From a virus (taxonomy: Duplodnaviria; Heunggongvirae; Uroviricota; Caudoviricetes): DNA of 18,284 nt. A program made the translations under genes and the position numbers. Numbering within the stretch: position 1 is the first letter of the stretch; the number at the start of each line of letters is the position of its first letter. The notes under the pieces were generated by a model. It was not told the origin of the DNA and did no database searches. It saw nothing but the letters and a program-made list of their open reading frames with translations. Shown in pieces: positions 477 through 14,400 of this stretch. The stretch is taken from positions 1 through 18,284 of IMG/VR virus record IMGVR_UViG_2671180878_000013; one strand, given 5' to 3'.

Positions 477-489
477 ATGATGCTGATAA

Positions 490-566: not shown

Positions 567-575
567 TATGTGATA

Positions 576-651: not shown

Positions 652-813
652 GGGCGCAGGATAATAACGGTACGTAACTAATCCTGCAATATCATCCGTT
701 CTGACTGACTAAATCCTGAACTTCCCTGACCGTCTGCTCAAAACGTTCAGTCTCCAGCTCAACGCCAATTGCACGACGCCCCAGCGACATTGCTGCTTTG
801 ACGCTACAGACAT

Positions 814-842
814 AAAAAAGCCAGCCACTGGGGGAGGCTGGC
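814..842 (-). terminator. Rho-independent terminator on the minus strand
   Basis: Stem gccagcc/ggctggc with a G-rich loop; on the minus strand the hairpin is followed by TTTTTT. Confidence 0.45.
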
Positions 843-1021
843 AAACTCGTAGAGCAAAATGCTGTTACGCAAACTTCGTTACAGGGTCATCCTGCAATAC
901 AAAAAATACACAATATTTAGAAAACTAATAGTGCCATGTGCAATTTTTAAGATTTTGTTATTAATTGTGGTCGCACCTTCCTTTCTGTGTACTTTCCGTA
1001 TAGCTCACAGGATTCTGGGTA

Positions 1022-1046
1022 CAAAAAAACCCGCGCATCGGCGGGT
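1022..1046 (-). terminator. Rho-independent terminator on the minus strand, candidate tR' ending a short pR' transcript
   Basis: Stem acccgc/gcgggt with 6-nt loop; on the minus strand it is followed by TTTTTTTGT. It lies about 60 nt downstream of the candidate pR'. Confidence 0.55.
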
Positions 1047-1093
1047 TCTTAAATCTTATCAACGGTAGACATACAAAGCCCATCGTTGGGAAA

Positions 1094-1122
1094 ATCTTAT
1101 CCATATTTTTTGAAAAATGCAA
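1094..1122 (-). promoter_or_regulatory. Candidate late promoter pR' (Q-dependent antitermination entry site)
   Basis: On the minus strand, -35 TTGCAT (1122..1117), a 17-nt spacer, and -10 TAAGAT (1099..1094), located just downstream of the Q stop and upstream of the terminator at 1022-1046. Confidence 0.4.
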
Positions 1123-1153
1123 GCATCATGTCGTCATCTTCGGCGAAAACCAT

Positions 1154-1906
1154 TTATCTTGTCACCTTTCTCAATTGTATCTCTGCATATGCTTCTTCCT
1201 GCCAGCACTTTGTAACCAGTTTATCAATGACATCTGCATATCCTTTGTACCACTGATAATCCGTCAGGTCTGGTACCAGCTTCTGGACATGAAGCCGCGC
1301 CAGTGTGGTTGGTAAACGGCTAAACCGGTTTCCATTGCAACGCCCACAAACCTTATAAACAGGCGTGCCATGAAGCCGGGTTCTTTTTTCATCCAGGACA
1401 ATACCTTTACCCTTGCACCCTCTGCATGCTGTGCTGACTTCTCCCTTACCATGACAATGCTGACATAGTTCCTTCACCCACTCTTCCTTAATAACAGATT
1501 CCCCGCTTCTGGAGTGTTTCACCACCTCGCGCAATACATTATGAAATCCAGTACCAGCACAATGCTCACAGCGAGCCTTACTTGCCGCAGACCTGGAATA
1601 ATCAGCAAAGGCAAAATTCACAAGGTAAGGAATGATCTGTAGCCGGGTTTCTTCACTCAATTTATTCAATGTCGGGTTATCCAGTGCCATCGCGTAATTG
1701 AGCAGACCTTCAATCGCAAACTGAGGATCCTGAACACCAACTTTTGCCAGGAATAAAGCAAACCCAAGCGGTGCTTTTGACTGCACCATCCCCTGCGCAG
1801 CCATCACATCCGTAATTGTTAAACCACCAGAGCCTGTCGCCGGTGCGTCATCGCTCAGTTTTGGAGATTTCGGGGAGTAATATTTCGGTAAGGCTTCAAG
1901 GTTCAT
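1154..1906 (-). CDS. Q: Antitermination protein Q (phage 82/21-type, zinc-binding)
   Basis: 250-aa ORF starting MNLEALPKYYSPKSPK with paired Cys/His motifs (CEHC, CQHCHGKG, CRGCKGKG, CGRCNG). ATG at 1906 is preceded by GGAGAA. The ORF-track start at 1948 would overlap the upstream gene. Confidence 0.8.
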   Translation of the reverse strand: MNLEALPKYYSPKSPKLSDDAPATGSGGLTITDVMAAQGMVQSKAPLGFALFLAKVGVQDPQFAIEGLLNYAMALDNPTLNKLSEETRLQIIPYLVNFAFADYSRSAASKARCEHCAGTGFHNVLREVVKHSRSGESVIKEEWVKELCQHCHGKGEVSTACRGCKGKGIVLDEKRTRLHGTPVYKVCGRCNGNRFSRLPTTLARLHVQKLVPDLTDYQWYKGYADVIDKLVTKCWQEEAYAEIQLRKVTR

Positions 1907-1919
1907 GCTCGTTCTCCAC

Positions 1920-2969
1920 TTACGCCAGTACGCCAATTGCCAGCGCACGATCGATAAAACGAAATATCAGCTCCAGCTGAGAGCCATACTTCTCTTCAAA
2001 TGCCACGGTATCCGCATGAAGCTCGTTGTGATGCTCCCGACACAGCGGTAGCGTGAAAATATCGTGAGATTTTGTCCCCATTCCGCCCTGACCATGACCA
2101 ATCAGGTGATGGGGATCGTCGGCTGGCTTACCACAACACGCACACGGCTGTGTCTTTACCCAGCGTGTGTATTTCTCATTTACCCAGCGGCGACGTTTAG
2201 GTCGTTTCATGAAGGATTCCGGAGACTCCGGATCAACGGCAATGCTGACCACCGTCTTTTCCTGTGGTGGGTTCTGTTGCTGGTGGGTGTGAGACGGTAG
2301 CGCAATATTTTTTGTGCGCTGCTTCAGTATGCTGGTGGCGGTCTGTTCTCCCGGTATGATGTCGCTTTCACGGTATACGGAGCGGATTTTTTCCGCACGC
2401 AACCCCAGCGAACGACGTAATACCGCTTCCGGTAGCGCGTCCGCCACCTGATTGCGGACCGCCCACCAGGATAATTCAGCCAGCGATAATTCCCGTTCCT
2501 GTATGCCATTCATTGCGTGGCGGATGACGTCAATCATCCATGCTGACAGGTTTTGTTGAGCAAGTTGCTCGAGTGATTCTGATGTCTGGTCGCGCAGCTG
2601 GTTGTCACAGTGCCAGCACAACACCATCGCGCCGGTACCATAACGGTGAATGACTGTTTCGCTGTGATGATAATCGCCGTGTGGCCACTGGCAGGATTTC
2701 ACGTGACGTAATAACCAGTCAGACAGTGCACCTGCACCACCTGCTGCACGAATAACCCGCTCATCGCTGAAAAATGGCAGTAATGTTTTATCCTCTGCCA
2801 GCGGCTGGCGAACGGCAGGAACGACTCCGGACGGCAGACCGCGCATGTTTTTCGGTTCCGGCTCCACCAATATTCTGCCGTTATGGAATACTGACATTGA
2901 TTCACGGCCTGGCTTAACGATAACCAGACCGAGTTCCGGTACCAGAACAGGTCGAAGTAATACCCGCAC
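1920..2969 (-). CDS. ydfU: DUF968-family prophage protein with C-terminal HNH-like motif (YdfU-like)
   Basis: 349-aa ORF with C-terminal CACCGKPADDPHHLIGHGQGG...CREHHNELH motif, at the position just upstream of Q as in Qin. The start appears to be GTG at 2969 with GGAGG 4 nt upstream; an ATG at 2897 is an alternative. Confidence 0.7.
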   Translation of the reverse strand: MRVLLRPVLVPELGLVIVKPGRESMSVFHNGRILVEPEPKNMRGLPSGVVPAVRQPLAEDKTLLPFFSDERVIRAAGGAGALSDWLLRHVKSCQWPHGDYHHSETVIHRYGTGAMVLCWHCDNQLRDQTSESLEQLAQQNLSAWMIDVIRHAMNGIQERELSLAELSWWAVRNQVADALPEAVLRRSLGLRAEKIRSVYRESDIIPGEQTATSILKQRTKNIALPSHTHQQQNPPQEKTVVSIAVDPESPESFMKRPKRRRWVNEKYTRWVKTQPCACCGKPADDPHHLIGHGQGGMGTKSHDIFTLPLCREHHNELHADTVAFEEKYGSQLELIFRFIDRALAIGVLA

Positions 2970-2970
2970 G

Positions 2971-3240
2971 TTACCTCCAGATGCGCTGCTGGAATGTGCG
3001 GGACGGACGCGGTGGGCGTTCGGAATAAGGGAGCCTGGCGGAGATTATCCAGTGACGACGATCGAAGCTGAGATCTTTCTGAAACTCGTAACCACGCCTG
3101 CGGTAACACTGGATCAGCCATTCGGCCTGTTCTTCAGTGCATAGGGGATGCTGGAACCAGTCGGTTTTAAATACGTGCGAACACCGCCCTTGCCTACTGG
3201 CAAGGGCGGCAGAATTGTGCAATCTGCTATCGTGCGCCAT
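2971..3240 (-). CDS. Hypothetical 89-aa protein, translationally coupled to the DUF968 gene
   Basis: ATG at 3240 preceded by GGAG. The stop TAA sits inside the GGAGGTAAC ribosome-binding site of the next gene. Product not recognised. Confidence 0.45.
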   Translation of the reverse strand: MAHDSRLHNSAALASRQGRCSHVFKTDWFQHPLCTEEQAEWLIQCYRRRGYEFQKDLSFDRRHWIISARLPYSERPPRPSRTFQQRIWR

Positions 3241-3293
3241 CGGGATCTCCGGTGGCACGGTGTTTCTCAGCGACGGTTCAAGTCAGCCTGATT

Positions 3294-3521
3294 TTATAGC
3301 TGCTTCTGAATATCATCAACAGGTAATCCTGCCAACTCTCTTACCTCAGAAAGAAGAGAAAGGCTTACAACAACCTCATTACTTCGCATAACAAAACCAC
3401 ATTGAAAAGAACCATCACTGTTTCTGTAAACAACAACCGGGCGCGTGCTCTCATAAAACCCCGGGATCAAACTGGCTGGGATTTTCACAACACCTCCTGA
3501 CGTAAAGGAAATGAAATGCAT
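3294..3521 (-). CDS. Hypothetical 75-aa protein (rem position of Qin)
   Basis: ATG at 3521 preceded by GAGAGAAG. Product MHFISFTSGGVVKIPAS... not recognised; its position between the hok and ydfU homologs matches rem in Qin. Confidence 0.35.
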   Translation of the reverse strand: MHFISFTSGGVVKIPASLIPGFYESTRPVVVYRNSDGSFQCGFVMRSNEVVVSLSLLSEVRELAGLPVDDIQKQL

Positions 3522-3744
3522 TATCGCTTCTCTCGGACTATAACCATGAAAAGAGACGCATTTCACTCAGTAAATCTGAGGATTTTATGCGCAAGAACAA
3601 TGACTTTTTCTGTCTGCCGTTTATACAATCTGAATTACGTCTGTTTTTTGAACACCGATAAATCAGCAAGCATTCTCAAATAAAGATTGCCTCCATAGTC
3701 CACATGGTGTAACACTATGTGTTATATAAAATGCAGAGGCAGGT

Positions 3745-4116
3745 ATGCGAATTTTCAAAAACGCCTGGTTTGAACGTTTCGCCCGAAAACATCGGATTTC
3801 CGATAAATCGCTGCGCAAAATCGTGGAGCAGGCCGATAAGGGGATCATATCCGCAAATTTGGGTAGTGGTGTCATTAAACAAAGATTAGCCCGAAGTGGT
3901 GGCGGAAAATCAGGCGGTTACCGGACAATAATTTTTTACCGCGTTGCAGAAAAAGCCTTTTTCATCTACGCATACGCAAAGAATGAACGAGAGAATATCA
4001 CTGCTATAGAGGAAAATGCTTTTCGAAAAGCCGCTCCCCATGTCCTCAATCTTACTGATGAACAGCTGGCACAATTGATTCAACAAGGCCAGTTCACGGA
4101 GGTACCCAATGAGTAA
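3745..4116 (+). CDS. higB: HigB-like (RelE/ParE superfamily) toxin
   Basis: 123-aa ORF with GGYRTIIFY...FFIYAYAKNEREN motif resembling HigB-type toxins. GAGG lies upstream of the ATG, and the gene overlaps the downstream antitoxin gene by 8 nt. Confidence 0.6.
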   Translation: MRIFKNAWFERFARKHRISDKSLRKIVEQADKGIISANLGSGVIKQRLARSGGGKSGGYRTIIFYRVAEKAFFIYAYAKNERENITAIEENAFRKAAPHVLNLTDEQLAQLIQQGQFTEVPNE

Positions 4117-4426
4117 AAATTACCGCAGTGATGCACTTGCATCTGTACATGAAATGATGGAGTCACTCCATGATATCGGTGCAATCACAAAACAAACTAT
4201 GCGCGAATTCGATGAAACTTGTCTTCAGCCTGCGCCGGTAATGTCTCCGGAAAGGATCCGTGCACTGCGAGAACGAGAGCATCTGTCTCAACCTGTTTTT
4301 GCCAGATACCTCAACGTCAGTAAAAACCTGATATCAGACTGGGAACGAGGAGTGAAACGCCCGGGAGGTGCAGCTCTTCGGCTTCTTTCAGTTGTCGAGA
4401 AAAACGGGATCCAGGTAATATCCTGA
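4109..4426 (+). CDS. higA: HigA-like HTH (XRE-family) antitoxin
   Basis: 105-aa ORF with a C-terminal HTH (LSQPVFARYLNVSKNLISDWERGVKRPGGAALRLL). The toxin-first, overlapping arrangement is typical of HigBA. Confidence 0.6.
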   Translation: MSKNYRSDALASVHEMMESLHDIGAITKQTMREFDETCLQPAPVMSPERIRALREREHLSQPVFARYLNVSKNLISDWERGVKRPGGAALRLLSVVEKNGIQVIS

Positions 4427-4499
4427 TATTCTAATACAACAAAACCCGCCGAAGCAGGTTAAGTGCGGGTGCGTTGAGGATGCCTGACACATCAGAGGT

Positions 4500-4521
4500 G
4501 GCGAGGGATTTCTCCCTCGCC
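4500..4521. repeat. Perfect hairpin ggcgaggga-tttc-tccctcgcc between the convergent higA and hok genes
   Basis: 9-bp perfect stem with 4-nt loop seen directly; no flanking T-run on either strand, so it is not a canonical intrinsic terminator. Confidence 0.5.
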
Positions 4522-4528
4522 AGGTCTC

Positions 4529-4684
4529 TTACTCCTCAGGTTCGTAAGCTGTGAAGACAGCGACCTCCGTCTGGCCGGTTCGGATTCGTACCTCGCAGAG
4601 GTCTTTCCTCGTTACCAGTGCCGTCACTATGACGGTTAAACAGATGACAATCAGGGCGATTAACATCGCCTTTTGCTGCTTCAT
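4529..4684 (-). CDS. hokD: Hok/Gef-family membrane toxin
   Basis: 51-aa product MKQQKAMLIALIVICLTVIVTALVTRKDLCEVRIRTGQTEVAVFTAYEPEE matches recalled HokD/RelF almost exactly. AAGGAG lies 9 nt upstream of the ATG at 4684. Confidence 0.85.
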   Translation of the reverse strand: MKQQKAMLIALIVICLTVIVTALVTRKDLCEVRIRTGQTEVAVFTAYEPEE

Positions 4685-4917
4685 AGCCTGCTTCTCCTTG
4701 CCTTTCGGCACGTAAGAGGCTAACCTACATGTGCAAAGCATGAAATTGGCCTCAGATTAATGTTAAGCGTCCTGCAAGACGCGTAATGTTAACTGGGGCT
4801 TTTCTCTGTCTGCCTTACGGCGGCATGCCCGAGGCAGACAGCCTCAAGCACCCGCAGCAATTCTACTTAACTCTTCTTTCCCCGCAAATCATTTTATCCC
4901 CGATGGTAATGTTCTCC

Positions 4918-4937
4918 CGATATGGGAATTCCCATAT
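4918..4937. repeat. 20-bp perfect palindrome GATATGGGAATTCCCATATC
   Basis: Seen directly; lies between the stop of the ORF6N gene and the hok leader. Candidate protein-binding site or processing structure. Confidence 0.6.
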
Positions 4938-4955
4938 CAAGGTTAACTCAATCGG

Positions 4956-5507
4956 TTAAAGCTCCATTAATTTTCCGGCCAGTTCATCTCGTGGCATTAC
5001 CAGCCATCCGCGCGATTTAAGCAAAGCCAGGGCTTCTTCAACCGTCACCAGCTGGCCAGGCGCATAACTTCGGATGAAGGCGGTTTTATCGTCACGGATC
5101 GCCAGGTGAAAATCGATATTCATTTTTCCCATAGCCCGCTCTTTCTCGTACTGGTTGAAGTAACTGTCTTCGAGTTTTTCGAATACTTCCCACGCCTGAT
5201 CGGTTTCGAGCATTTTTGCATGACGGGCTGCTCCGCGTTCTGTCCAGAGGATGAGAGTGCGGGTTTTGGGAGAAATTTTCACCTCATTTTGCGACTCGTT
5301 TAAAACTAGTCGCAAATTTTTGAGCTCATCACCAACAGCTTTAAAGAAGTGTTTTCCCTCAATAAATCGAGATTTATTTTCATGGTGATTCTGCTGTATA
5401 CGGATTGCTTCTGTTCCGTAAAGGCGGGCGAGTAACTCAGTTGTGATTACAGGAATCTGGTTATAAGTGACAGGGGAAAGGTTTTTGACAGTAACTTGAG
5501 TCGTCAT
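4956..5507 (-). CDS. ORF6N/KilA-N-type DNA-binding protein (antirepressor-like)
   Basis: 183-aa ORF with an N-terminal pattern (LARLYG...RFIEGKHFFK...TERGAARHAKMLETDQAWEVFEKL) characteristic of ORF6N domains. AGAGGG lies upstream of the ATG at 5507. Confidence 0.6.
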   Translation of the reverse strand: MTTQVTVKNLSPVTYNQIPVITTELLARLYGTEAIRIQQNHHENKSRFIEGKHFFKAVGDELKNLRLVLNESQNEVKISPKTRTLILWTERGAARHAKMLETDQAWEVFEKLEDSYFNQYEKERAMGKMNIDFHLAIRDDKTAFIRSYAPGQLVTVEEALALLKSRGWLVMPRDELAGKLMEL

Positions 5508-5671
5508 GATAACGCCCTCTGGTTGATGAATTTAACTATCACCACCTTCAGGTCTCAATCATCAGGTGGCGAGACGTACAGGGTTGAGACTACCGGATCA
5601 ACCAACCGGCCAGCCTTTCGGCTGCCCCATACGCCTCACCATAATTCAGATGTGCGTGCGCATACGACAAT

Positions 5672-5693
5672 AAAAAACACGCTCGCGGCGTGT
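5672..5693 (-). terminator. Candidate tR2-like Rho-independent terminator on the minus strand
   Basis: Stem acacgc/gcgtgt with 5-nt loop; on the minus strand it is followed by TTTTT. It sits between the replication/accessory genes and the ORF6N gene. Confidence 0.35.
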
Positions 5694-5778
5694 GTCTGTC
5701 GCGGTTGAATATCCGGGGTCTCAATCCCGACGGTCAACTCGACCGTGCGGTGAATATAGCCCCGGATTAGTAATTACG

Positions 5779-5862
5779 TCAACCCCAGCGGCAAATCGAA
5801 TAAACCACCAGCGCTACCGCCATTGCAACTCCTGCCGTTACGAATGCCTCAGGCCAGGTCAT
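5779..5862 (-). CDS. Candidate 27-aa hydrophobic peptide (MTWPEAFVTAGVAMAVALVVYSICRWG)
   Basis: Hand-translated. Its ATG overlaps the stop of the upstream 61-aa ORF as ATGA, and GAGG lies 10 nt upstream. One predicted transmembrane helix. Confidence 0.3.
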   Translation of the reverse strand: MTWPEAFVTAGVAMAVALVVYSICRWG

Positions 5863-6044
5863 CGTAAACTATCCTCAGCGCCAATCAGTCCGTTTCGCTT
5901 CAGGCAGTCCATCGCTTTATACGGTAATTTGGCTGACAGGCGAAAATCACCCTGCAGCATCAGGCTTATTCCCTTATCCCGGGCTTTCGCTCTGACCGCT
6001 GCCTCGCTACGACCAATCAGACTGCCGATACTTTCGACAGTCAT
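5859..6044 (-). CDS. Hypothetical 61-aa protein, possible small HTH regulator
   Basis: MTVESIGSLIGRSEAAVRAKARDKGISL... from the ATG at 6044. The longer 111-aa ORF-track version would overlap the upstream gene by 90 nt. Confidence 0.35.
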   Translation of the reverse strand: MTVESIGSLIGRSEAAVRAKARDKGISLMLQGDFRLSAKLPYKAMDCLKRNGLIGAEDSLR

Positions 6045-6103
6045 CGTTCCCGCGCACTGCCGGAGTATCAGAATTTCAGCCCGGCACCACGTCTTCCACC
6101 CAC

Positions 6104-6865
6104 TCACCGCTGCTGTTCTCTGGTGGCGGTAATATCCCGGAGAATATCCCGGCACTTGTTCAGCTCCCGCAGCGCGGCGCAGACTCGCTCCCACTTCTGA
6201 ACCTGACCTTTTGCCCGGCGCAGCTCGCGGTTAGCCACATGCAGCGATGGTAAAATCAGCCCATCCGGATGCTTTCTGGTGAACGACGGCTGTGACTGCA
6301 CTGTGACCGCCACACTTTCCGTTTTTATTTCTTCCTGTGTTTCCGCTTCCCGGACTGGTAACGCAACACATGCTGGCTGAGGAAAGGCCTTACCATCATT
6401 TTCCGTTACCAGCGCGGCTTTCGGCTCTGCTGGTAAATTATCGCCCGGCATGCAGTAACGAAATCTACCGTTCTGATTAACGCGTGCCAGCCGCCCCGTT
6501 GCGGTTACCACCGCCAGCGTGGAAGCAACCTTGCGAGTACTGACACTGAACTTACCCGCTATTTCTTCACAGGTTTTAGCCCCCTCCTGAGCGATAAACT
6601 CAATCATCATGTTAGCGCTAACTTTTGGAGCGACCTCTTCGGTCAGCATATCCTGTGTTTCAGATTTTACTGGCCGCTCTTCGGTTACCCGGGATTCACC
6701 TTCGACAGCCAGAAACCAGGTGTGACCCGTTTTATCAACAACGCCATTTTTTTTGAGCTCCCACAGTTCGTTGAGAACTTCTTCACGGCTGATATCAATT
6801 CGTGCCGCCAGTTCAACAGAATTGGCTTTACCCATCGCTTTCAGTGCATGCAATACGGTTTCCAT
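6104..6865 (-). CDS. Hypothetical 253-aa protein with two predicted winged-helix domains (ren position, just downstream of the P-like gene)
   Basis: ATG at 6865 preceded by GGAGGAAG. Two HTH-like segments (SVELAARIDISREEVLNELWELKKNGVV and CEEIAGKFSVSTRKVASTLAVVTATGRLARV) and a basic C-terminus; family not recognised. Confidence 0.55.
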   Translation of the reverse strand: METVLHALKAMGKANSVELAARIDISREEVLNELWELKKNGVVDKTGHTWFLAVEGESRVTEERPVKSETQDMLTEEVAPKVSANMMIEFIAQEGAKTCEEIAGKFSVSTRKVASTLAVVTATGRLARVNQNGRFRYCMPGDNLPAEPKAALVTENDGKAFPQPACVALPVREAETQEEIKTESVAVTVQSQPSFTRKHPDGLILPSLHVANRELRRAKGQVQKWERVCAALRELNKCRDILRDITATREQQR

Positions 6866-6899
6866 TAAAACTTCCTCCGGATAAAAATTACTTCTCAAA

Positions 6900-7565
6900 T
6901 CAGACAAAACCAGCCGCTTTCCGGCGTTCATACTCCTGTTTCAGCAACTCAATTGGCGTTGGTCCCAACGGGCGTTTTGGTGCCGCCAGTTGTCGCCGTA
7001 CTGGCGGAACGCTCAGGCCGTTACTAACATGCTTTGCCCATTTCGTCAGCTGCCGTTCTGCAAGCCGTTTTAATTCCCCTTCGGTCATCTGGCGTTCAAT
7101 CCCCTCTGAACGCATCTCGAGGCAAATGTGATACAGCACAGGCTGAGGCCACGGATATTTGTCGCTTCCGTTATATCGCCAGGACTCATTACGCCAGCGG
7201 CGATACTCCTCCATCACAGCATCCACCGTCAGGCCAAATGGATTGGCCCCGCTTTCCGAAATCAGCGCCACAAACTCAGCCAGGTCCGGAGGCCATGTTT
7301 CACCCGCCCGGCAGCGGTCCATGCACTGGCGGCAGACCTGCCGGATTTGCTGCTCAGTCATCGCGCCAATCTGTGCAATCCAGAGCTTCGAAGGTGCGGC
7401 CCCGTTCTTCTGGGTCCAGCGGTTCGAATAAACCTCCCCCATGAGTTCCCACAGCTTCCAGGCCGTTTCCGTCGCTGATAAATCCGTTTTCACGTTCCCA
7501 CTGCTCACGTGCTGCCCGAATTTCCTGAACTGCCCGTGATGCGGTGCCACCTGGTGCTGCTGCAT
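6900..7565 (-). CDS. Lambda P-like replication protein (helicase loader)
   Basis: The C-terminal two thirds resemble recalled lambda P (YPWPQPVLYHICLEMRSEGI..., GELKRLAERQL...). Start is uncertain: the frame is open to 7565, while an ATG at 7361 overlaps the O-like stop by 8 nt. Confidence 0.6.
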   Translation of the reverse strand: MQQHQVAPHHGQFRKFGQHVSSGNVKTDLSATETAWKLWELMGEVYSNRWTQKNGAAPSKLWIAQIGAMTEQQIRQVCRQCMDRCRAGETWPPDLAEFVALISESGANPFGLTVDAVMEEYRRWRNESWRYNGSDKYPWPQPVLYHICLEMRSEGIERQMTEGELKRLAERQLTKWAKHVSNGLSVPPVRRQLAAPKRPLGPTPIELLKQEYERRKAAGFV

Positions 7566-8394
7566 GGTTTACCCCCTTGCTGACTGGTTTAACCTGCGCC
7601 CTGACGTGATTTACGTGACGGGCGAATTTCTGCTCCCACTGAATCTGCGTAAACACTTTCCCCTCCGCTGCCCAGTAGTCCCGGAATGCGGTAAGTTCAG
7701 CAGGTGTAAATTCTGTCTCCGGCAAAGCCATCCCCCACAACGCAGCCCGTCGTCGAAAATCCCGTGACGGATACCAGCTATCGGTCATCGGAAATTTTCC
7801 GATGGGTTCGCTCAGGCCATCCAGGAATACATGGGGGGCTGCCTGTAACGACAAAACTTCCTGCTCACTGATCGGAGCACTCTCGCGTGCGTTATGTGTG
7901 GGGTTTAGATCTTTGGGTTCCTTTGGGTTCCGTGATCCGTTTTTGGGTGTCTTTGATGGAAAATTTGGGTGTCTTTGGTTATTTTCCATGCAACAAAGAG
8001 TTCCGTTTTTGGGGCTCTTTTGTGCTGAAACATAACCGTTTTCGGTACTGTTTTTATTAACAGCACCAATTTTACCCACCTTTAAAGACACCCGTTTTTG
8101 GGTGTATTCAGGCTCGGCAACACTTTCTTCTACACCGATAAGTCGGTACACCACAATTTGCTTTGTTCTGCCTTTTCTCTCACCGGTATCAACAATTAAC
8201 CCAATCTCCATCAGGTGTCGTAAGCTGTCCTGCACAGTCTTTTTGTTCAGTTCCGTTACTTCTGCCAGTGCAGATACAGACGGGTATGCACACAAATCGG
8301 CACCGCACATATCAGCAAGCCAGGTCAATACAGACTTACTGGATGAACTGCCGGTTTTCACCTTTTTAGCCCATCGTAGTGCATCGATACTCAT
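7354..8394 (-). CDS. Replication initiator (lambda O analogue): N-terminal HTH, linker encoding the origin, C-terminal DnaT-like domain
   Basis: N-terminus MSIDALRWAKKV...SVSALAEVTELNKKTVQDSLRHLMEIGLI is HTH-like. C-terminal segment GKFPMTDSWYPSRDFRRRAALWGMALPETEFTPAELTAFRDYWAAEGKVFTQIQWEQKFAR matches the recalled E. coli DnaT C-terminus. AGGGG lies upstream of the ATG at 8394. Confidence 0.75.
   Translation of the reverse strand: MSIDALRWAKKVKTGSSSSKSVLTWLADMCGADLCAYPSVSALAEVTELNKKTVQDSLRHLMEIGLIVDTGERKGRTKQIVVYRLIGVEESVAEPEYTQKRVSLKVGKIGAVNKNSTENGYVSAQKSPKNGTLCCMENNQRHPNFPSKTPKNGSRNPKEPKDLNPTHNARESAPISEQEVLSLQAAPHVFLDGLSEPIGKFPMTDSWYPSRDFRRRAALWGMALPETEFTPAELTAFRDYWAAEGKVFTQIQWEQKFARHVNHVRAQVKPVSKGVNHAAAPGGTASRAVQEIRAAREQWERENGFISDGNGLEAVGTHGGGLFEPLDPEERGRTFEALDCTDWRDD
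7911..8103. repeat. Origin of replication: iteron array plus AT-rich region inside the initiator gene
   Basis: Tandem ctttgggttc x2 (7911-7930); tttgggtgtctttg at 7942-7955 and 7964-7977; TTTGGG(T/G) cores again at 8007-8013 and 8096-8102; inverted copy aaagacacccg at 8083-8093; AT-rich block 8030-8080. Coincides with the PKNG-rich linker of the initiator. Confidence 0.7.
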
Positions 8395-8917
8395 ACGAAC
8401 CCCTGGCAGATATTTGTTTATCTGCAAAGTAATATTGATACTGCTGACGATACGCATGCTTGAAAGCAATAGCTTTTTCTATAAGCTCGTCAGTCTCACG
8501 TTCCACAACAGATGGATCCGCAAAAAGCAGTCCGGACTCCACCACATCGCCATATTCTTTGTTTAACCCGGCGATCATGTACGTGATGCTTTTTCCGTCA
8601 CTAATTTCACGATACAACCTGAAATCATTAATCCGGATAGCCTCCATAATTGCAGGCACTAGCGCCGTGAACTTTTCACGCTTATCCCTGGTGTCGATAG
8701 CCTTCCAGCGTTCGAATATCTTCACTCGATTAACGCCAAGCGCTCGCTGATCAACCGCGCCACCTTCATCTGTGACACGCTGAACATCGATGTTCGGGCG
8801 CTCTTTCAAAACCCAGAATGCTTCAGTGATTAATATCGTCGCCTGCTCCTGTGTCATTCCTGGTCGACATATCCAGGCATCCAGAGCCTCACGAGCCTGT
8901 TCAGGAGTGATTTTCAT
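8366..8917 (-). CDS. Hypothetical early protein at the cII position (possibly YdaT-like)
   Basis: 183-aa ORF between the cro-like and initiator genes. The family assignment rests on position only and is weak. Confidence 0.4.
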   Translation of the reverse strand: MKITPEQAREALDAWICRPGMTQEQATILITEAFWVLKERPNIDVQRVTDEGGAVDQRALGVNRVKIFERWKAIDTRDKREKFTALVPAIMEAIRINDFRLYREISDGKSITYMIAGLNKEYGDVVESGLLFADPSVVERETDELIEKAIAFKHAYRQQYQYYFADKQISARGSYEYRCTTMG

Positions 8918-9057
8918 TGTTCAACCGCCCCGCCCGCTTTGCCTTACGATATTCGTCATAAACTTTGGGGTCGTACTGAAGTTCCCCGCCGGATGCCTCT
9001 TGCAGGCGCATCGCGCGACCTTCAGGAACTAGCTCTTGCCATTGAGAAACAGCAGAT
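8901..9057 (-). CDS. Cro-like (YdaS-type) HTH protein, C-terminal fragment; N-terminus lost in the gap
   Basis: Minus-strand translation adjoining the gap reads ...SAVSQWQELVPEGRAMRLQEASGGEL..., resembling the end of an XRE-type HTH. It is divergent from the repressor-like gene. Confidence 0.35.
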
Positions 9058-9081
9058 NNNNNNNNNNNNNNNNNNNNNNNN
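9058..9081. other. Assembly gap: 24 N of unknown true length
   Basis: A run of N in the sequence. Both flanking genes lack N-termini, so the gap must stand for several hundred missing bases covering the divergent repressor/cro promoter-operator region. Confidence 0.9.
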
Positions 9082-9082
9082 C

Positions 9083-9331
9083 GCCGAGGTATTGCAATGT
9101 TCACCAACCTGGATACTGTTTGGCGACGAGGACAAAACACCAGCTCCCCCTGTTTCACTCGATAGTACCCTAGACTTATCGGAAGATGAGTTAGAGATGC
9201 TGCGTTTGTATCGCGCACTTCCTAAATCAGAGCAACAAGCACAACTCAGCGAACTCCGCGCCCGCGTTGAGAATTTTAATCGCCTGTTCACCGAGCTATT
9301 AGAGGCTCGCAAACGCAACAAGCATCAATAA
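9083..9331 (+). CDS. dicA: DicA-like (cI-analogue) repressor, C-terminal fragment; N-terminal HTH lies in the gap
   Basis: (A)EVLQCSPTWILFGDEDKTPAPPV...LSEDELEMLRLYRALPKSEQQAQLSELRARVENFNRLFTELLEARKRNKHQ matches the recalled C-terminal half of E. coli DicA. Confidence 0.7.
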   Translation, partial: AEVLQCSPTWILFGDEDKTPAPPVSLDSTLDLSEDELEMLRLYRALPKSEQQAQLSELRARVENFNRLFTELLEARKRNKHQ

Positions 9332-9418
9332 TCATCCCTTCACAAAATTTTAAAGCCTTACATTTCAATGTATTGGCTTTATCTTGCGCCAATACTTGAG
9401 TTTTCTCATCAAAAAACC

Positions 9419-9473
9419 TTGACGAAAAATAATGAGAAAACTAAATTATCTCCATCAACACACCGCACGGTGT
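9419..9473 (+). promoter_or_regulatory. Candidate promoter of the dicB-type operon with a downstream palindromic operator
   Basis: -35 TTGACG (9419-9424), 17-nt spacer, -10 TAAATT (9442-9447), then the 14-bp palindrome ACACCGCACGGTGT (9460-9473). Confidence 0.45.
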
Positions 9474-9523
9474 TCTCCGCAAACAGTTCCGCTACCCCGG
9501 CGTTAAGGGGAAATGAGGTCAAC

Positions 9524-9676
9524 ATGGATACGCTCAATCTTGGCAACAACGAATCTCTGGTATGCGGAGTATTCTCCAACCTGGACGGCACGTTTACCGC
9601 GATGACGTATACCAGAAGCAAAACGTTTAAAACGGAAGCTGGCGCGCGTCGCTGGTTAGCAAGAAACTCTGACTGA
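9524..9676 (+). CDS. ydfA: YdfA-like small protein
   Basis: 50-aa product MDTLNLGNNESLVCGVFSNLDGTFTAMTYTRSKTFKTEAGARRWLARNSD, first gene after the repressor as in Qin; GAGG upstream of the ATG. Confidence 0.7.
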   Translation: MDTLNLGNNESLVCGVFSNLDGTFTAMTYTRSKTFKTEAGARRWLARNSD

Positions 9677-10326
9677 TGAGGTTGACGATGGAATTTAAAG
9701 ATTTACCTCCTTCAATCCAGGAGATTGCAGCACACACACTTCGTCATCGTCTGAACGAACTTGAATTGGAATCGGTAACGAAAAAAGACACTGATAATAT
9801 GGCTCGTAATGTGCGCGATGCGTTTACCGGATTGTATTTCTGTGCGTCTATAAATAAACACGACTCAGAGAGTGTGGCAAATAAAATTGCAGAAACGACA
9901 GCGCAAAACATCAATACGAAACCAACGGAAGAAGAAATTGATCAGTTTGCTCATGATGCTGGTTTAAAAAACAAGAAAGAAAAATCGCCATATGCGGGGA
10001 ACATGTTTGTTTATGACAATCTCATCAGAATTCGTGGCGAAATTCCGGCGGAATACCTGGCAAGAGTCCATCAGGCATTGCTTAAAAATTTGGAAACAGA
10101 ATTATTTGATGGCAACACTAACGGTTTCTTCATGGTATCAGGCCTTGAGAAAGACTGGGATGCAGAAAAACGCTGGAATGTTGCTACATGGTTATTCAGT
10201 AACAGAGCCGCTGCACTGGAAGCTTCGGCATGTATTTGCGGCCTGTTCTTAACAGACCACAAATATAATCTGGATGTGTACAGTTATATTTACGCTGAAC
10301 ACGGTCCACTCTGGATTGACTGGTAA
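9676..10326 (+). CDS. Hypothetical 216-aa protein, or 212 aa from the ATG at 9688; family not recognised
   Basis: ATG at 9676 overlaps the ydfA stop as TGATG; the alternative ATG at 9688 has GAGG 6 nt upstream. Sits where Qin has ydfB/ydfC. Confidence 0.6.
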   Translation: MRLTMEFKDLPPSIQEIAAHTLRHRLNELELESVTKKDTDNMARNVRDAFTGLYFCASINKHDSESVANKIAETTAQNINTKPTEEEIDQFAHDAGLKNKKEKSPYAGNMFVYDNLIRIRGEIPAEYLARVHQALLKNLETELFDGNTNGFFMVSGLEKDWDAEKRWNVATWLFSNRAAALEASACICGLFLTDHKYNLDVYSYIYAEHGPLWIDW

Positions 10327-10536
10327 TTATAAGGAAACACCAGCAGGGCCGCGGCGACCAACAGAACGATTAAAATCAATAATGCCATTATAAAGGACAT
10401 TATTTAATTTATCGTCGAATGCTGATTCTGTGAGCCTCAACTCTGAATGAGTTTTTAATAACCCTGATTGCCTGAGTTGATTTACCAGGCATTCAATCTG
10501 TTTTTCAATAAGCGGATTTCTTTTTTTGTTTGGCAT
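10327..10536 (-). CDS. Hypothetical 69-aa protein, convergent with and abutting the 212-aa gene
   Basis: ATG at 10536 preceded by GGAGGA. Its stop codon directly abuts the stop of the plus-strand gene. Product MPNKKRNPLIEKQIECLVNQLRQSGLL... not recognised. Confidence 0.45.
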   Translation of the reverse strand: MPNKKRNPLIEKQIECLVNQLRQSGLLKTHSELRLTESAFDDKLNNVLYNGIIDFNRSVGRRGPAGVSL

Positions 10537-10874
10537 TTTATCCTCCATTGAGGTTCTGGGTTAAAAATGGAGACCAACACGCTGTCACGTGTGGTCGTGC
10601 GCCGGACACGGATAAGAATCCGGTACTGACAGTTTACTGAAAGGATATTTCCCTGAAAAGTCAGTGCATAACGCGAAAGCGTACGGCGAAGCTCTTTCCC
10701 TTAGAAGGCTTGTCGTTAGATTTCTTCGAACGTGCGCTTCCGGTTGTGGCACTCCGCGAAATGGCGCGGCGGTAAGTATGGCGGGGTTATTCCTTCCCCA
10801 GTTGAGGACACCGGGTTGTCAGGTTGACCATACGCTTAAGTGACAACCCCGCTACAACGCCCTCTGTTATCAAT

Positions 10875-10933
10875 ATTCTGGTGACATTTGGCGGTATCAG
10901 TTTTACTCCGTGACTGCTCTGCCGCCCTTTTTT
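10875..10933 (+). ncRNA. dicF: DicF small RNA (ftsZ-targeting sRNA of the dicB operon)
   Basis: attctggtgacatttggcggtatcagttttactccgtgactgctctgccgccctttttt matches recalled E. coli DicF, including the terminator hairpin and T-run. Ends are approximate. Confidence 0.8.
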
Positions 10934-11103
10934 AAAAGTGAATTTTGTGATGCGGTGAATGCGGCTCAGCGCACGCGGAACAGTTAAAACCAAAAACAGT
11001 GTTATGGGTGGATTCTCTGTATCCGGCGTTAATTGTTAACTGGTTAACGTCACCTGGAGGCACCAGGCACCGCATCACAAAATTCATTGTTGAGGACGCG
11101 ATA

Positions 11104-11292
11104 ATGGAAAAGTTATCATGTAATGCCAGCACGTCTGAACTTCGTTTCGAAATTGGCGTTATCACTGGAGACAAAACATTTATTGAAGACGCCATTAAGC
11201 AGAGAAAACTCGAGCAGGACCTGTTAAATGAAGTATGCATTCCTTCAATGCTGGCTCGTCTGGACCTGCTGCAAAAAGGATATAAACAATGA
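11104..11292 (+). CDS. dicB: Cell-division inhibitor DicB
   Basis: 62-aa product MEKLSCNASTSELRFEIGVITGDKTFIEDAIKQRKLEQDLLNEVCIPSMLARLDLLQKGYKQ matches the recalled DicB pattern (FEIGV...EDAI..RK...LLN..CI.SMLARL); GAGG upstream. Confidence 0.8.
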   Translation: MEKLSCNASTSELRFEIGVITGDKTFIEDAIKQRKLEQDLLNEVCIPSMLARLDLLQKGYKQ

Positions 11293-11480
11293 ATACAACA
11301 TTTGCACTCGTTCTGACAGTTTATCTTGTTTCCGGCGAATCTCTTGAGCTGGTGACTGGCTTATACGGTTCAATGAAAGAATGCATGGCTGCAGCAGCAG
11401 AACAAAAAATTCCCGGTAACTGTTATCCGGTAGATAAAACTACTCACACTAATAATAACGAAATACCGGCAGGACTTTAA
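11289..11480 (+). CDS. ydfD: YdfD-like small membrane protein (lysis-associated in Qin)
   Basis: 63-aa ORF whose ATG overlaps the dicB stop as ATGA; hydrophobic N-terminus MNTTFALVLTVYLVSG; same position and length as ydfD. Confidence 0.65.
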   Translation: MNTTFALVLTVYLVSGESLELVTGLYGSMKECMAAAAEQKIPGNCYPVDKTTHTNNNEIPAGL

Positions 11481-11573
11481 AACAGCACCGTAATTAATAT
11501 CCGGTTTCATTTTTATATGCCAGCAATGGCAGGGATTTGTTCACCCTTAAATCTGTAATGAGGTTAAAACAAA

Positions 11574-14045
11574 ATGAGTAAAGTCTTTATTTGCGCCGCC
11601 ATTCCGGACGAACAGGCAATAAAAGAAGAGGGCGCAGTTGCTGTAGCCACTGCCATTGAAGCCGGTGATGAACGCCGCGCCCGTGCCAAATTTACCTGGC
11701 AATTCCTGGAGCAATATCCTGCTGCTCAGGACTGCGCTTATAAATTTCTTGTCTGCGAAGATAAACCTGGCATGCCCCGCCCTGCTATCGACTCCTGGGA
11801 TACCGAATATATGCAGGAAAACCGCTGGGATGAGGAATCCGCTTCCTTTATTCCGGTCGAACCAGAATCCGATCCTATTAACGTCAATTTTGACAAGCTG
11901 TCCCTTGAAGTACAGAACGCGGTCCTGGTTAAGTTCGGTACATGTGAAAACATCACCGTTGATATGGCGATTGACGCGCAGGAATTACTGCAAGAAGACG
12001 TGGCTACCTTTGACGGACATATCGTTGAAGCACTGATGAAAACGCCTGAAATTAACGCTATGTATCCGGAACGCAAACTGTTCGCTATCGGATGGGTTAA
12101 ACACAAATGTAAGCCGGGTACCAAATGGCCCGAAATTCAGGCTGAATTACGTAACTGGAAAAAACGGCAGGACGCAGAGCGCAAAGAGACTGGAAAATAC
12201 ACGTCTGTTGTTGATCTTGCCCGCGCCAAAGCCAACCGACAGCACACTGAAAACCCAGCAGAAAAAATCCCTCCTGTAACTGCCGCCATTCATCGCGAAT
12301 ACAAGCAGACATGGAAAACCCTGGACAGGGAGCTGGCCTACTATCTCTGGCCTGGTGATGCGGATGCCGGAAACATTGACGGCAGCATCCTTCGCTGGGC
12401 TAAAAATGAAGTTATCGCCAGAGATCGCGAAGACTGGAAGCGCATCTCCGCATCAATGCGCAAACAACCTGATGCGCTTCGCTACAGCCGCCAGACTATT
12501 TTTGGCCTTGTCCGTGAACGTCCGATCGACATTCACAAAGACCCTGTGGCACTGAACAAATACATTACTGAATACCTGACTACAAAGGGCGTGTTTGAAG
12601 ATGAAGGAAGAAATCAGAGCGCAACTGATACTCTCTCGTCGCCAGTACCAGAAACTGATGCAGTGGAAACGGCAATTCAGGACAACGAAAAAACCGAATG
12701 CAAAGTGGAAGTCGAATCATCTGTAGAGCGTGAGGGGCCGTTCTACTTCCTCTTCAGCGACAAGGATGGCGAAAAATACGGTCGTGCAAACAAACTTTCT
12801 GGTCTGAATAAGGCGCTGGCTGCAGGGGCTACTGAAATCACGAAAGAAGAATATTTTGCCCGCAAAAACGGTACATACTCAGGTTCACAACAAAATACTG
12901 GTGCATCTGACACGATCGCACAACCGGAGCCGGTAAAAGTTACCGCTGACGAAGTAAACAAAATTATGCAGGCAGCCAATATCAGCCAGCCTGACGCCGA
13001 TAAGTTGCTTGCTGTATCACGTGGTGAATTTGTTGCAGGGATTAGCGACCCGAATGATCCGAAATGGGTGAAGGAGATTGAAACCCGCGATTCAGTGAAT
13101 CAGAACCAGCAAGAAACGGAACAGAACGACCAGAAAGCGGAACAAAACAGCCCAAATGCGTTACAAAACGAGCCAGAAACGAAACAATCCGAACCAGTAG
13201 TGCAACAGGAACCGGAAAAAGTCTGCACCGCCTGCGGTCAGAGCGGTGGCGGCAACTGCCCCGATTGTGGCGCTGTCATGGGCAACGCAACATACCAGGA
13301 AACATTCGATGAAGAGAATCAGGTTGAAGCTCAGGAGAATGATCCGGAGGAAATGGAAGGCGCTGAACATCCACACAAGGAGAACACTGGCGGCAATCAG
13401 CATCACGCCAGCGATAGTGAAACTGGCGAGGCGGCAGATCCCTTAATTAAGGTGAATGGTCATCACAATCTCACATCCACCAGCAGAGCGGGGATTCATC
13501 TGATGATCGACATTGAAACCATGGGAAAAAATCCCAATGCCGCGATTATCTCAATAGGCGCAATATTTTTCGATCCACAAACCGGAGATATGGGACCGGA
13601 ATTTAGCAAGACCATCGATCTGGATACTGCTGGCGGAGTTATTGATCGTGACGTCATTAAATGGTGGCTGAAGCAATCACGTGAAGCGCAGTCTGCCATT
13701 CTGACCGATGAAATCCCGTTAGATGATGCACTACTGCAATTGCGGGAATTTATCGCCGAAAACTCCGGTGAATTTTTTGTTCAGGTCTGGGGAAATGGAG
13801 CCAACTTCGACAACGTGATTTTACGCCGTTCATACGAACGGCAGGGGATCCCCTGCCCCTGGCACTACCACAACGATCGCGATGTACGCACAATCGTTGA
13901 GCTAGGGAAAGCCATAGACTTCGATGCCAGAACAGCTATCCCATTCGAAGGTGAGCGCCACAATGCACTTGATGACGCCCGTTACCAGGCAAAATACGTT
14001 TCAGCTATCTGGCAAAAACTGATCCCGAGTCAGGCTGATTTTTAA
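11574..14045 (+). CDS. ydfE: Intact YdfE-like 823-aa prophage protein with a CxxC...CxxC zinc ribbon and a C-terminal DEDD-type 3'-5' exonuclease domain
   Basis: C-terminal motifs HLMIDIETMG (Exo I) and ERHNALDDARYQA (Exo III-like); zinc ribbon CTACGQSGGGNCPDCG; Q/E-rich acidic linker; GAGG upstream of the ATG. The K-12 ydfE is a truncated remnant of this gene. Confidence 0.7.
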   Translation: MSKVFICAAIPDEQAIKEEGAVAVATAIEAGDERRARAKFTWQFLEQYPAAQDCAYKFLVCEDKPGMPRPAIDSWDTEYMQENRWDEESASFIPVEPESDPINVNFDKLSLEVQNAVLVKFGTCENITVDMAIDAQELLQEDVATFDGHIVEALMKTPEINAMYPERKLFAIGWVKHKCKPGTKWPEIQAELRNWKKRQDAERKETGKYTSVVDLARAKANRQHTENPAEKIPPVTAAIHREYKQTWKTLDRELAYYLWPGDADAGNIDGSILRWAKNEVIARDREDWKRISASMRKQPDALRYSRQTIFGLVRERPIDIHKDPVALNKYITEYLTTKGVFEDEGRNQSATDTLSSPVPETDAVETAIQDNEKTECKVEVESSVEREGPFYFLFSDKDGEKYGRANKLSGLNKALAAGATEITKEEYFARKNGTYSGSQQNTGASDTIAQPEPVKVTADEVNKIMQAANISQPDADKLLAVSRGEFVAGISDPNDPKWVKEIETRDSVNQNQQETEQNDQKAEQNSPNALQNEPETKQSEPVVQQEPEKVCTACGQSGGGNCPDCGAVMGNATYQETFDEENQVEAQENDPEEMEGAEHPHKENTGGNQHHASDSETGEAADPLIKVNGHHNLTSTSRAGIHLMIDIETMGKNPNAAIISIGAIFFDPQTGDMGPEFSKTIDLDTAGGVIDRDVIKWWLKQSREAQSAILTDEIPLDDALLQLREFIAENSGEFFVQVWGNGANFDNVILRRSYERQGIPCPWHYHNDRDVRTIVELGKAIDFDARTAIPFEGERHNALDDARYQAKYVSAIWQKLIPSQADF

Positions 14046-14114
14046 TGTTCAACCATCGCCGGTTGTGACTGGTATTCTGCAACCGGCCCTCATCTGATGT
14101 AAGAGATAAAAGCG

Positions 14115-14366
14115 ATGAGCGAAGTAATCATGATTGTCTCTCCCGGTAAATGGGTATCCGAAGAGCAGTTAATTGCGCTGAAAGGAATAAAAAAAGGTAC
14201 GTTAAAAAAGGCCCGGGAAAAATCGTTTATGGAAGGAAGGGAATATAAGCATGTCGCTCATGACGGTATGCCATGGGATAACAGTCCATGCTTTTACAAC
14301 CTGGAAGAAATTGATCGCTGGATTGAGCGCCAGGCATCTGCAAGACCAAGACGTCATCTTGCTTGA
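14115..14366 (+). CDS. xis: Excisionase (Xis-like, winged-helix)
   Basis: 83-aa ORF immediately upstream of the integrase on the same strand; AAGAGA upstream of the ATG. Confidence 0.65.
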   Translation: MSEVIMIVSPGKWVSEEQLIALKGIKKGTLKKAREKSFMEGREYKHVAHDGMPWDNSPCFYNLEEIDRWIERQASARPRRHLA

Positions 14367-14400
14367 CTAAAAGCAACACGAACCAATGAGAGAAGCTGAA

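Follow-up and report, generated by a model that had tools for sequence, protein, structure and literature searches.

In phage lambda and the Shiga toxin (Stx) phages the replication origin lies in the middle of the initiator gene O, within the pR operon; O binds the iterons of the origin to form the O-some, and the adjacent A+T-rich tract unwinds (PMC7466680). Ori-lambda comprises four 18-bp dyad iterons in the linker-coding middle of O, and the O protein itself has two domains, with the N-terminal domain binding the iterons and the C-terminal domain meeting P, which loads DnaB. In phi80 the iterons are found inside the initiator gene, gene 15, directly after the part that codes for the winged helix; four annotated gp15 sites, TTCCCGAAAACGGGAA, which are dyads, are followed by AAGAAC (GAAC-type) repeats and AAAGATCT, and then by the P-like gene 14. 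A chromosomal point of reference is the DopC/DopE pair of the Cellvibrionales and Oceanospirillales, in which a protein with HTH_36 and DnaT_C domains is followed by a P-like protein; this pair was domesticated from lambdoid phages and has no iterons (Brezellec et al., 2017, PMC5509034). Here we describe a repeat array at positions 7910-8108 of an 18,284-nt stretch of a Caudoviricetes virus (IMG/VR record IMGVR_UViG_2671180878_000013, positions 1 to 18,284; hereafter the window). The array lies within a minus-strand gene (7354-8394) for a replication initiator of 346 amino acids, and the next gene codes for a lambda P-like helicase loader. From comparison of sequences, and by analogy with the described systems, we consider it very likely that the array is the initiator-bound replication origin of a lambdoid prophage of E. 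coli O157, placed inside the initiator gene in the manner of ori-lambda and ori-phi80.

An iteron-type origin within the initiator open reading frame (ORF), like ori-lambda in gene O, was the central proposal of an initial annotation made from the DNA letters alone, and the comparative evidence argues strongly for it. The repeat elements on which that proposal was built are all present. TTTGGG(T/G) occurs six times on the plus strand (7912, 7922, 7942, 7964, 8008 and 8097), and these copies make up six of the ten TTTGGG on that strand of the whole 18.3-kb window. The tandem 10-mer CTTTGGGTTC occupies 7911-7931 with 2.1 copies at 100% match (Tandem Repeats Finder, TRF), identical 14-mers, TTTGGGTGTCTTTG, are found at 7942-7955 and 7964-7977, and an inverted copy, AAAGACACCC, at 8084-8093 is 100% complementary to 7967-7976. 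The description was nevertheless incomplete, and it merged two classes of repeat into one. A full copy at 8029-8052, whose core, CCGAAAACGG, does not contain TTTGGG, was overlooked; the inverted copy AAAGACACCC is the other half of a palindromic repeat; and the tandem 10-mer, which carries the left half of the iteron only, belongs to a different class from the 24-bp dyad iterons.

Read on the minus strand, which is the coding strand, the array consists of four full 24-bp dyad iterons, one variant and two tandem half-copies, all in one orientation. It spans gene nucleotides 287-485 (amino acids 96-162), between the segments that code for the winged helix and for the DnaT-like domain. Iterons R1 (AATACACCCAAAAACGGGTGTCTT, 8085-8108) and R2 (AACAGTACCGAAAACGGTTATGTT, 8029-8052) are each self-complementary at 16 of 24 positions; they score 31.7 and 29.5 bits on a position weight matrix (PWM) and encode the peptides Y-T-Q-K-R-V-S and S-T-E-N-G-Y-V. 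R3 (AAGAGCCCCAAAAACGGAACTCTT, 7996-8019; S-P-K-N-G-T-L) is self-complementary at 14 of 24 positions and scores 30.2 bits, while R5 (AAGACACCCAAAAACGGATCACGG, 7930-7953; T-P-K-N-G-S-R) has a full core and a weak right arm and scores 31.1 bits. The variant iteron R4v (AAGACACCCAAATTTTCCATCAAA, 7952-7975; R-H-P-N-F-P-S) has an intact left half, an AAATTT centre and a degenerate right half, and in the corresponding place the Edwardsiella, Serratia and Plesiomonas homologs have an AATTTT-centre variant. The two 10-mer units (GGAACCCAAA twice, then AGATCT; 7910-7931, minus strand, from TRF) resemble left half-iterons.

The 24-bp consensus was derived from 59 aligned cores in 14 homologous genes, of which ten, from diverse loci, came from a scan of genome contigs and four from exact-protein look-up. 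It reads AA-s-r-n-n-C-CC-(A/G)-AAAA-C-GG-g-A-n-n-s-TT, and a PWM scan of the whole window returned only R1, R2, R3 and R5. The 10-bp core CCNAAAACGG (CC-N-AAAA-CGG) has four matches where 0.15 would be expected, a number reached in none of 200 shuffles; these lie at 7937-7946, 8003-8012, 8036-8045 and 8092-8101, all on the minus strand, and span 165 bp. The 18-mer CGTTTTTGGGTGTCTTTG has three matches at three or fewer mismatches against an expectation of 0.03. The G+C content across 7940-8100 is 35-40%, compared with 53-60% in the 3' half of the initiator gene. The spacings of the iterons in the window (56, 33, 44 and 22 bp) look like multiples of 11; helical phasing was dropped as a family feature because the homologs have spacings of 18, 24, 26 and 33 bp.

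The likeness to the described origins includes the iteron itself. The core of the phi80 sites, CC-G-AAAA-CGG, is identical to that of the window, although the phi80 iterons are 16 bp long at a regular spacing of about 21 bp and the units of the window are 24 bp long at 22-56 bp. The lambda iterons have the same plan of a C-rich arm, AAAAC and a G-rich arm; their core differs from that of the window at two of nine specified positions, and lambda iteron 3, with its AAATT centre, resembles R4v. As a putative origin, the array follows the lambda/phi80 plan down to the iteron core, and is an ordinary member of a textbook class.

Repeats inside a coding sequence might be no more than the DNA shadow of a low-complexity PKNG linker selected at the level of protein, with no function as DNA. 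The whole array does lie, as the initial annotation had it, within the segment for a PKNG-rich linker (amino acids 87-195; 7810-8136, minus strand) that is predicted to be disordered (predicted local distance difference test, pLDDT, below 50), and the PKNG and QRxPFFPS motifs of this linker recur and are kept among homologs, including relatives at 52-58% identity. The way in which these motifs are encoded speaks for the DNA instead. The core occurs two to six times in each of the 14 homologous genes, always in one orientation and always within gene nucleotides 280-480, and yet each of the three frames is used to read it (at 41, 17 and 2 sites), with TPKNG, TQKR and PKT as the resulting, unrelated peptides. 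At sites chosen by the peptide motif [PTS][KEQRN]NG, proline is encoded by CCC in 31 of 31 cases, compared with 46 of 251 (18%) elsewhere, with p = 1.6e-20, a value that overstates the independence of the sites, as the homologs are related. The remaining codons of the motif are fixed likewise (Lys AAA in 26/26, Asn AAC in 45/48 and Thr ACC in 14/14). The core is flanked by AA at -7/-6 in all 59 sites and by TT at +15/+16 in 42 of them; the two are mirror images about the centre of the core, were not imposed by the core search, and mean nothing for the peptide. Because of the reading in three frames, the fixed synonymous codons and this flanking dyad, we infer that the array is constrained as DNA and not as peptide, and the 'low-complexity' linker peptide appears to be largely a by-product of encoding iterons. 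The core is also common to the annotated protein-binding sites of phi80. Selection on the peptide is hardly credible as the source of the array, and a purely peptide-level repeat is effectively excluded.

Variation within E. coli bears on the same segment. Among 43 distinct E. coli alleles there are no polymorphic sites in gene nucleotides 421-480 (window 7915-7974), compared with about six per 60 nt elsewhere; this invariant stretch covers R4v, R5 and the 10-mers. The best 80 viral-contig relatives of the C-terminal domain were used for polymorphism only, and were useless for covariation because all of them are near-identical E. coli copies. Two natural E. coli/Shigella alleles encode proteins of 324 amino acids and are shorter by exactly 22 codons; in the protein alignment the gap extends from the PKNG of R3 to the PKNG of R5 (window 7930-8019), a deletion that we interpret as the copy-number variation expected of iterons.

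These deletion alleles, which appear to come from recombination between repeats, could also be taken to indicate that the segment is chiefly a hot spot of recombination or a boundary between modules, whose repeats result from illegitimate or homologous exchange and not from binding of the initiator. The position of the module junction fits such an explanation, as homology between initiators with different N-terminal types begins at AAACCCCACACATAAC (7891-7906, minus strand; peptide L-N-P-T-H-N), directly after the array, where the C-terminal module common to other N-terminal types starts. A boundary, however, leaves unexplained both the 24-bp dyad consensus shared from Cupriavidus to E. coli and the strict orientation and position of the sites, and the junction adjoins the array and does not fall inside it. 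Exchange at this point is moreover compatible with an origin and does not compete with it; in lambdoid phages the origin and the N-terminus of O form one exchangeable unit. We regard recombination as the main role of the segment as very improbable.

The distribution of the core among homologs follows the N-terminal domain. Full-length homologs at 52-58% identity from Klebsiella, Enterobacter, Salmonella, Kluyvera and Scandinavium keep the array in place, and a Cupriavidus homolog at 45% identity has five cores. The Edwardsiella, Plesiomonas and Serratia homologs have the same N-terminal domain and six or seven iterons, joined to a Phg_2220_C C-terminus (E = 1e-10), and have a P-like gene next. 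In phiV10, Vibrio phage Her, Acinetobacter phage AP22 and Burkholderia phage Bcep176 the N-terminal domain is more distantly related, and the array is of the same type; it takes the form of five perfect 24-bp tandem iterons in Her (gene nucleotides 359-478) and of 24-bp tandem iterons in phiV10 (gene nucleotides 344-470). Conversely, Rac YdaU and the other E. coli 'DnaT-like' prophage initiators share with the window its C-terminal module, beginning at L-N-P-T-H-N (about 85-92% DNA identity), its P-like gene and its neighborhood of a ydaT-like gene and DUF1627, but their N-terminus is of the DUF1376 or replisome-organiser type and they have no CCNAAAACGG core; the homology between the window and Rac-SA53 ydaU or other E. 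coli alleles ends near 7914. The replisome-organiser type has five GTCACG repeats at about 10-bp spacing in the equivalent place (gene nucleotides 410-456), just before the shared junction, which presumably represent a different iteron specificity. A second cluster of four GTCACG is found in the N-terminal coding part of the same type (gene nucleotides 129-186). As the core persists with varied C-termini and is replaced by other repeats when the N-terminal domain differs, these comparisons suggest that the iterons and the N-terminal domain can be exchanged together as a single unit of specificity, with no dependence on the C-terminal domain.

When viral contigs were scanned for clusters of three cores, at least 80 loci were obtained. 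Among the matches listed, 59 of 80 core clusters lie in an ORF with this winged-helix domain (median E = 2e-39), at about 80-160 residues into the stop-to-stop frame; among the matches listed there are likewise 60 viral ORFs that combine the N-terminal domain with a triple core, 29 with a DnaT-like C-terminus and 31 with another. By sequence inspection, most of the remaining loci among the matches listed resemble other initiator-type proteins, and one that was checked is a true lambda-O-family protein (PF04492, E = 5e-24) with 85.5% identity to phi80 gp15. We note that a recurrent initiator-like protein of viral contigs, with no Pfam match, has the same CCNAAAACGG triple core in its linker (peptides SENG and SPKT). 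The core may be common well beyond the family studied here.

The initiator is annotated by PGAP as a 'DnaT-like ssDNA-binding domain-containing protein' (WP_000020565.1) and matches phrog_1032, 'replication initiation protein' (E = 5e-90). Its N-terminal domain (amino acids 1-86; 8137-8394, minus strand) is the presumed iteron-binding domain. In the AlphaFold2 (AF2) model it folds as a winged helix (amino acids 3-85), with helices at 3-11, 17-30, 40-47 and 51-64 and a beta hairpin at 67-85, and Foldseek gave weak matches to MarR/PerR winged helices. The helix-turn-helix call of the initial annotation needs some qualification, as HTH_36 scores 20.9 bits on this protein, under the Pfam cutoff of 25; relatives pass the cutoff, and the model agrees with the call in showing a winged helix.

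The likeness of the C-terminus to DnaT, which had also been pointed out, is borne out by alignment. The three-helix single-stranded DNA (ssDNA)-binding domain (amino acids 197-267; 7594-7806, minus strand) matches PF17948 with 60.4 bits (cutoff 25; E = 1.4e-16) and the DnaT chains 6aep, 4ou6 and 9zbt of the PDB with E-values from 1e-17 to 5.5e-19 (6aep, 5.5e-19), at about 55% identity over 70 residues; the Pfam and PDB matches cover amino acids 194-271 only. The three helices are modeled by AF2 at amino acids 201-266 with a pLDDT of 73-86, and the modeled domain superimposes on 4ou6/6aeq with a target-normalised TM-score of 0.89-0.94 and an rmsd of about 1 Å (Foldseek). Taken together, alignment and model indicate that the domain is truly of the DnaT type. 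The protein as a whole is no ortholog of DnaT, since its N-terminal half, a winged helix, is unrelated to that of DnaT, and the likeness is at the level of the domain only. E. coli DnaT (primosomal protein I), which shares about 55% identity over its C-terminal three-helix ssDNA-binding domain of about 70 residues, is a protein of about 179 amino acids with an N-terminal half of its own and acts in PriA-dependent restart and not at an origin, whereas the protein of the window has a winged helix and linker.

The P-like ORF (6900-7565, minus strand) encodes 221 amino acids when read from 7565. It was correctly recognized as lambda P-like, and it matches PF06992 (E = 5e-16) and phrog_109, 'P-like helicase loader' (E = 2e-62), with residues 19-220 aligned to positions 22-235 of the 236-position profile. 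PGAP places the start at 7361, which gives 153 amino acids; other gene callers give 223. The P frame is open for 212 nt upstream of the PGAP start (7354-7565), in the +1 frame over the 3' end of the initiator gene, and both overlapping frames are kept in the homologs at 52-58% identity, with ETAWRLWxVMGEIFSNRWTQKNG as the P-frame motif. Because the upstream frame is conserved and phrog_109 aligns from residue 19, the 153-residue annotation is probably truncated, and about 70 codons are probably dual-coding. In phi80, genes 15 and 14 overlap by a few bases, compared with up to 212 nt in the window. A further profile, phrog_15931 (482 positions, function unassigned in PHROG), matches both amino acids 161-345 of the initiator and amino acids 4-221 of the long P ORF, with overlapping profile positions, which suggests that some phage records hold initiator-P fusions or frameshifted ORFs.

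The combination of a DnaT-like initiator with a P-like loader had been described as unusual, but it proved to be very common. The gene finds a match in 1254 of 5426 complete E. coli genomes, with at least 80% of the gene covered in 907 and up to six places per genome, and in 25 of 25 sampled match rows the DnaT-like protein stands beside a 'replication protein P'. The same pairing is found in phiV10 (epsilon15-like, Uetakevirus), where p43 has HTH_36 (E = 1.8e-10) and DnaT (E = 1e-15) domains and p44 is P-like (E = 1.5e-56). The linker of the phiV10 initiator, which like ours belongs to phrog_1032, has six CCNAAAACGG cores, three of them in the 24-bp tandem units. It differs from the window in that identity is about 51% over part of the N-terminal domain only, the iterons are tightly tandem, and AACCAGTCAT in three copies follows; in the GenBank record of phiV10 a DnaT-family initiator followed by a P-family protein is annotated and the origin is not.

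DopC/DopE has the architecture of the window as well, with an HTH_36 N-terminus, a DnaT C-terminal domain and a P-like protein next. These are resident chromosomal genes without origin function, in bacteria that have neither dnaC nor dciA, whereas the pair in the window consists of prophage genes with an intact array. The E. coli host has dnaC. From its sequence, the locus looks like a phage-borne form of the DopC/DopE architecture, with iterons. A search of the literature on Rac/YdaU, DnaT, the phiV10/epsilon15 origins and the iteron sequence returned no description of this origin class, and a paper on the Stx 'Eru' replication region makes no mention of iterons or DnaT.

We propose a mechanism for this putative origin by analogy with lambda O/P and phi80 gp15/gp14. 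Transcription of the early-right operon (cro, the ydaT-like gene, the initiator and P) would supply the initiator, and dimers of its N-terminal winged helix would bind the dyad iterons, with the A-tract centers bending the DNA, to form an O-some-like complex. An adjacent element would then melt, and the candidates for it are the conserved GGAACCCAAA x2/AGATCT segment that follows directly on the array and the A+T-rich block that separates R1 from R2. The DnaT-like domain, tethered by the disordered linker of about 110 residues, would hold the single strand and/or dock the P-DnaB complex, so that host DnaB could be loaded.

The first of these elements, at 7910-7931, sits where relatives and phi80 have GAAC-type short tandem repeats and AAAGATCT after the iterons; the window has GGAACCCAAA x2 and AAAGATCT at the place that matches the AAGAAC repeats and AAAGATCT of phi80. 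The segment after the last iteron (7885-7931) is kept, and is very similar, in homologs of either C-terminal type. We regard it as a candidate for the element at which the DNA unwinds or the loader enters. Most enterobacterial homologs, and phi80 (about 1113-1121 in the phi80 stretch), keep AAAGATCT behind the last iteron. After the arrays of Her and phiV10 come two or three repeats of the AACCAGTCAT type, and in Bcep176 there are three to four copies of GAACAGTAG; a second class of short tandem repeats after the iterons seems to be a family feature. We do not claim the AGATCT segment as an oriC 13-mer (GATCTnTTnTTTT), from which it differs, by eye, by at least three mismatches at 11 specified positions. 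GATC occurs at 7870, 7908 and 7934, three times in 65 bp at the distal edge of the array compared with 2.7 per kb window-wide, and control of the putative origin by Dam/SeqA is conceivable.

The alternative candidate for the unwinding element, at 8046-8075 (no strand assigned), is 70% A+T and has the lowest stability of any 30-mer in the gene; within the window it ranks at the 97.8th percentile for low duplex stability. An AT-rich block had been noted from the start and is indeed there, although it is modest and lies between R1 and R2 and not distal to the array as in lambda. Enterobacter homologs have extra iterons in its place, and the block may represent decayed iterons. Searches for host factor sites in the region gave two DnaA box matches with one mismatch each (8054 and 8284), which is chance level, and no match to the IHF consensus in the same site scan.

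Several observations weigh against an origin of the lambda type. The dyad symmetry of R4v and R5 is poor, with 6-8 of 24 positions self-complementary. The only A+T-rich block is modest and inside the array, and the conserved segment downstream of the array (7885-7931) has about 50% G+C, unlike that of lambda, where the A+T-rich unwinding region is well defined and distal to the array; phi80 also has a clearly A+T-rich stretch after its array. The relation of the initiator to O is distant too. The O-like PHROGs 678 and 345 are matched by the N-terminal parts of three proteins, the initiator, lambda O and phi80 gp15, and homology to O rests on these shared profiles, where the iteron-encoded linker may inflate the scores; when the N-terminal domain is aligned directly to lambda O, hhalign gives a colinear but weak match (probability 11%, E = 0.0026), and PF04492 (Phage_rep_O) has no match on the initiator at E ≤0.01. 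Because the direct alignment is weak, we do not claim membership of Phage_rep_O. The N-terminal family of lambda O is PF04492, compared with the HTH_36-like domain here, and its C-terminal domain is also different; phi80 gp15 belongs to the Phage_rep_O family, has PHROG families in common with lambda O, and lacks the DnaT domain. Chromosomal DopC shows that a protein with HTH_36 and DnaT_C can exist without an origin (PMC5509034), and the prophage could be replication-defective.

The last two points bear on the main alternative, in which the sites bind the initiator but are not a working origin, serving instead in autoregulation, copy control or exclusion of related phages, or persisting as a relic in a defective prophage. 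Many O157 prophages are thought to be defective, and DopC represents an architecture able to lose origin function. Iteron arrays can titrate an initiator and inhibit related phages, and cloned lambda replication regions are described as inhibiting related phages (PMC3349717). The state of the locus fits this alternative less well, as neither the initiator ORF nor the P-like ORF is disrupted, four cores agree with the family consensus at every position, and no other stretch of the gene is as low in polymorphism in E. coli as the distal part of the array. Furthermore, the layout is kept in the plaque-forming phages phiV10, Vibrio phage Her and AP22, and the DopC loci are reported to be without the iterons that the window retains. 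Bound but silent sites seem to us unlikely, and a functional origin remains our preferred reading of the array.

A broader reading of these comparisons can be offered only tentatively, and we place it somewhat below an even chance. In it, CC-N-AAAA-CGG would be an ancient element of at least two winged-helix initiator families, the HTH_36 type and the lambda-O/phi80 type, and a third type, the Pfam-unclassified proteins of viral contigs, may also share the core. Specificity would then be a matter of the arms on either side of the core, whose encoding would yield the PKNG linker peptides as a by-product. The DopCE-type architecture with iterons would pre-exist in phages, so that the DnaT-type domain, on this view, was not added after domestication, and enterobacterial DnaT and the prophage initiators would have exchanged the domain.

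The surroundings of the array are those of a lambdoid early region. Window positions 7354-8469 are 100% identical to a prophage segment of the E. coli O157 strain FDAARGOS_293 (NZ_CP022050.2), where the annotation around the match lists an integrase, excisionase, exonuclease, dicB, a cI-like repressor, cro and a ydaT-like gene, followed in order by the 'DnaT-like ssDNA-binding domain-containing protein', 'replication protein P', DUF1627 and DUF977 and, further on, by a RusA-family gene and a Q-like antiterminator. In the window the YdaT-family gene (8366-8917, minus strand; PF06254, E = 1e-5) occupies the position of cII and overlaps the start of the initiator gene by 29 nt. A run of 24 N at 9059-9082 corresponds to about 306 bp in the reference O157 genome, which take in the 5' end of cro, the beginning of the repressor gene and the intergenic region between these two; as its flanks align on both sides to the reference, the run is an assembly gap or masked stretch. 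A promoter and terminator scan of 6800-9100 found no promoter-like site anywhere in that range and, between the initiator and P genes, no site resembling a terminator; the single terminator-like site, at 6909-6925, is near the 3' end of the P-like ORF. An Rfam scan of 6900-9000 gave no match. Elsewhere in the prophage, matches above the gathering score were found for AgvB (an anti-GcvB small RNA), STnc100, three tRNAs, sok (beside hokD), the C4 antisense RNA and isrK upstream of an ORF6N protein, and DicF (match positions 22-81, 82-290, 403-651, 4679-4853, 5562-5746 and 10876-10927).

While the general picture of lambdoid replication is unchanged by these observations, they provide a map of the putative origin, on which five iterons are placed together with the conserved element distal to them and the junction of the modules. 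About one-sixth of complete E. coli genomes have this replication module, and O157 genomes often have it in several copies. Virulence genes are carried or mobilised by prophages of this kind, whose replication has an effect on induction and on the dosage of toxin genes. The locus also provides what looks like a phage-borne counterpart of the DopC/DopE system, and it suggests that a 'low-complexity' protein linker can be dictated by cis-acting DNA.

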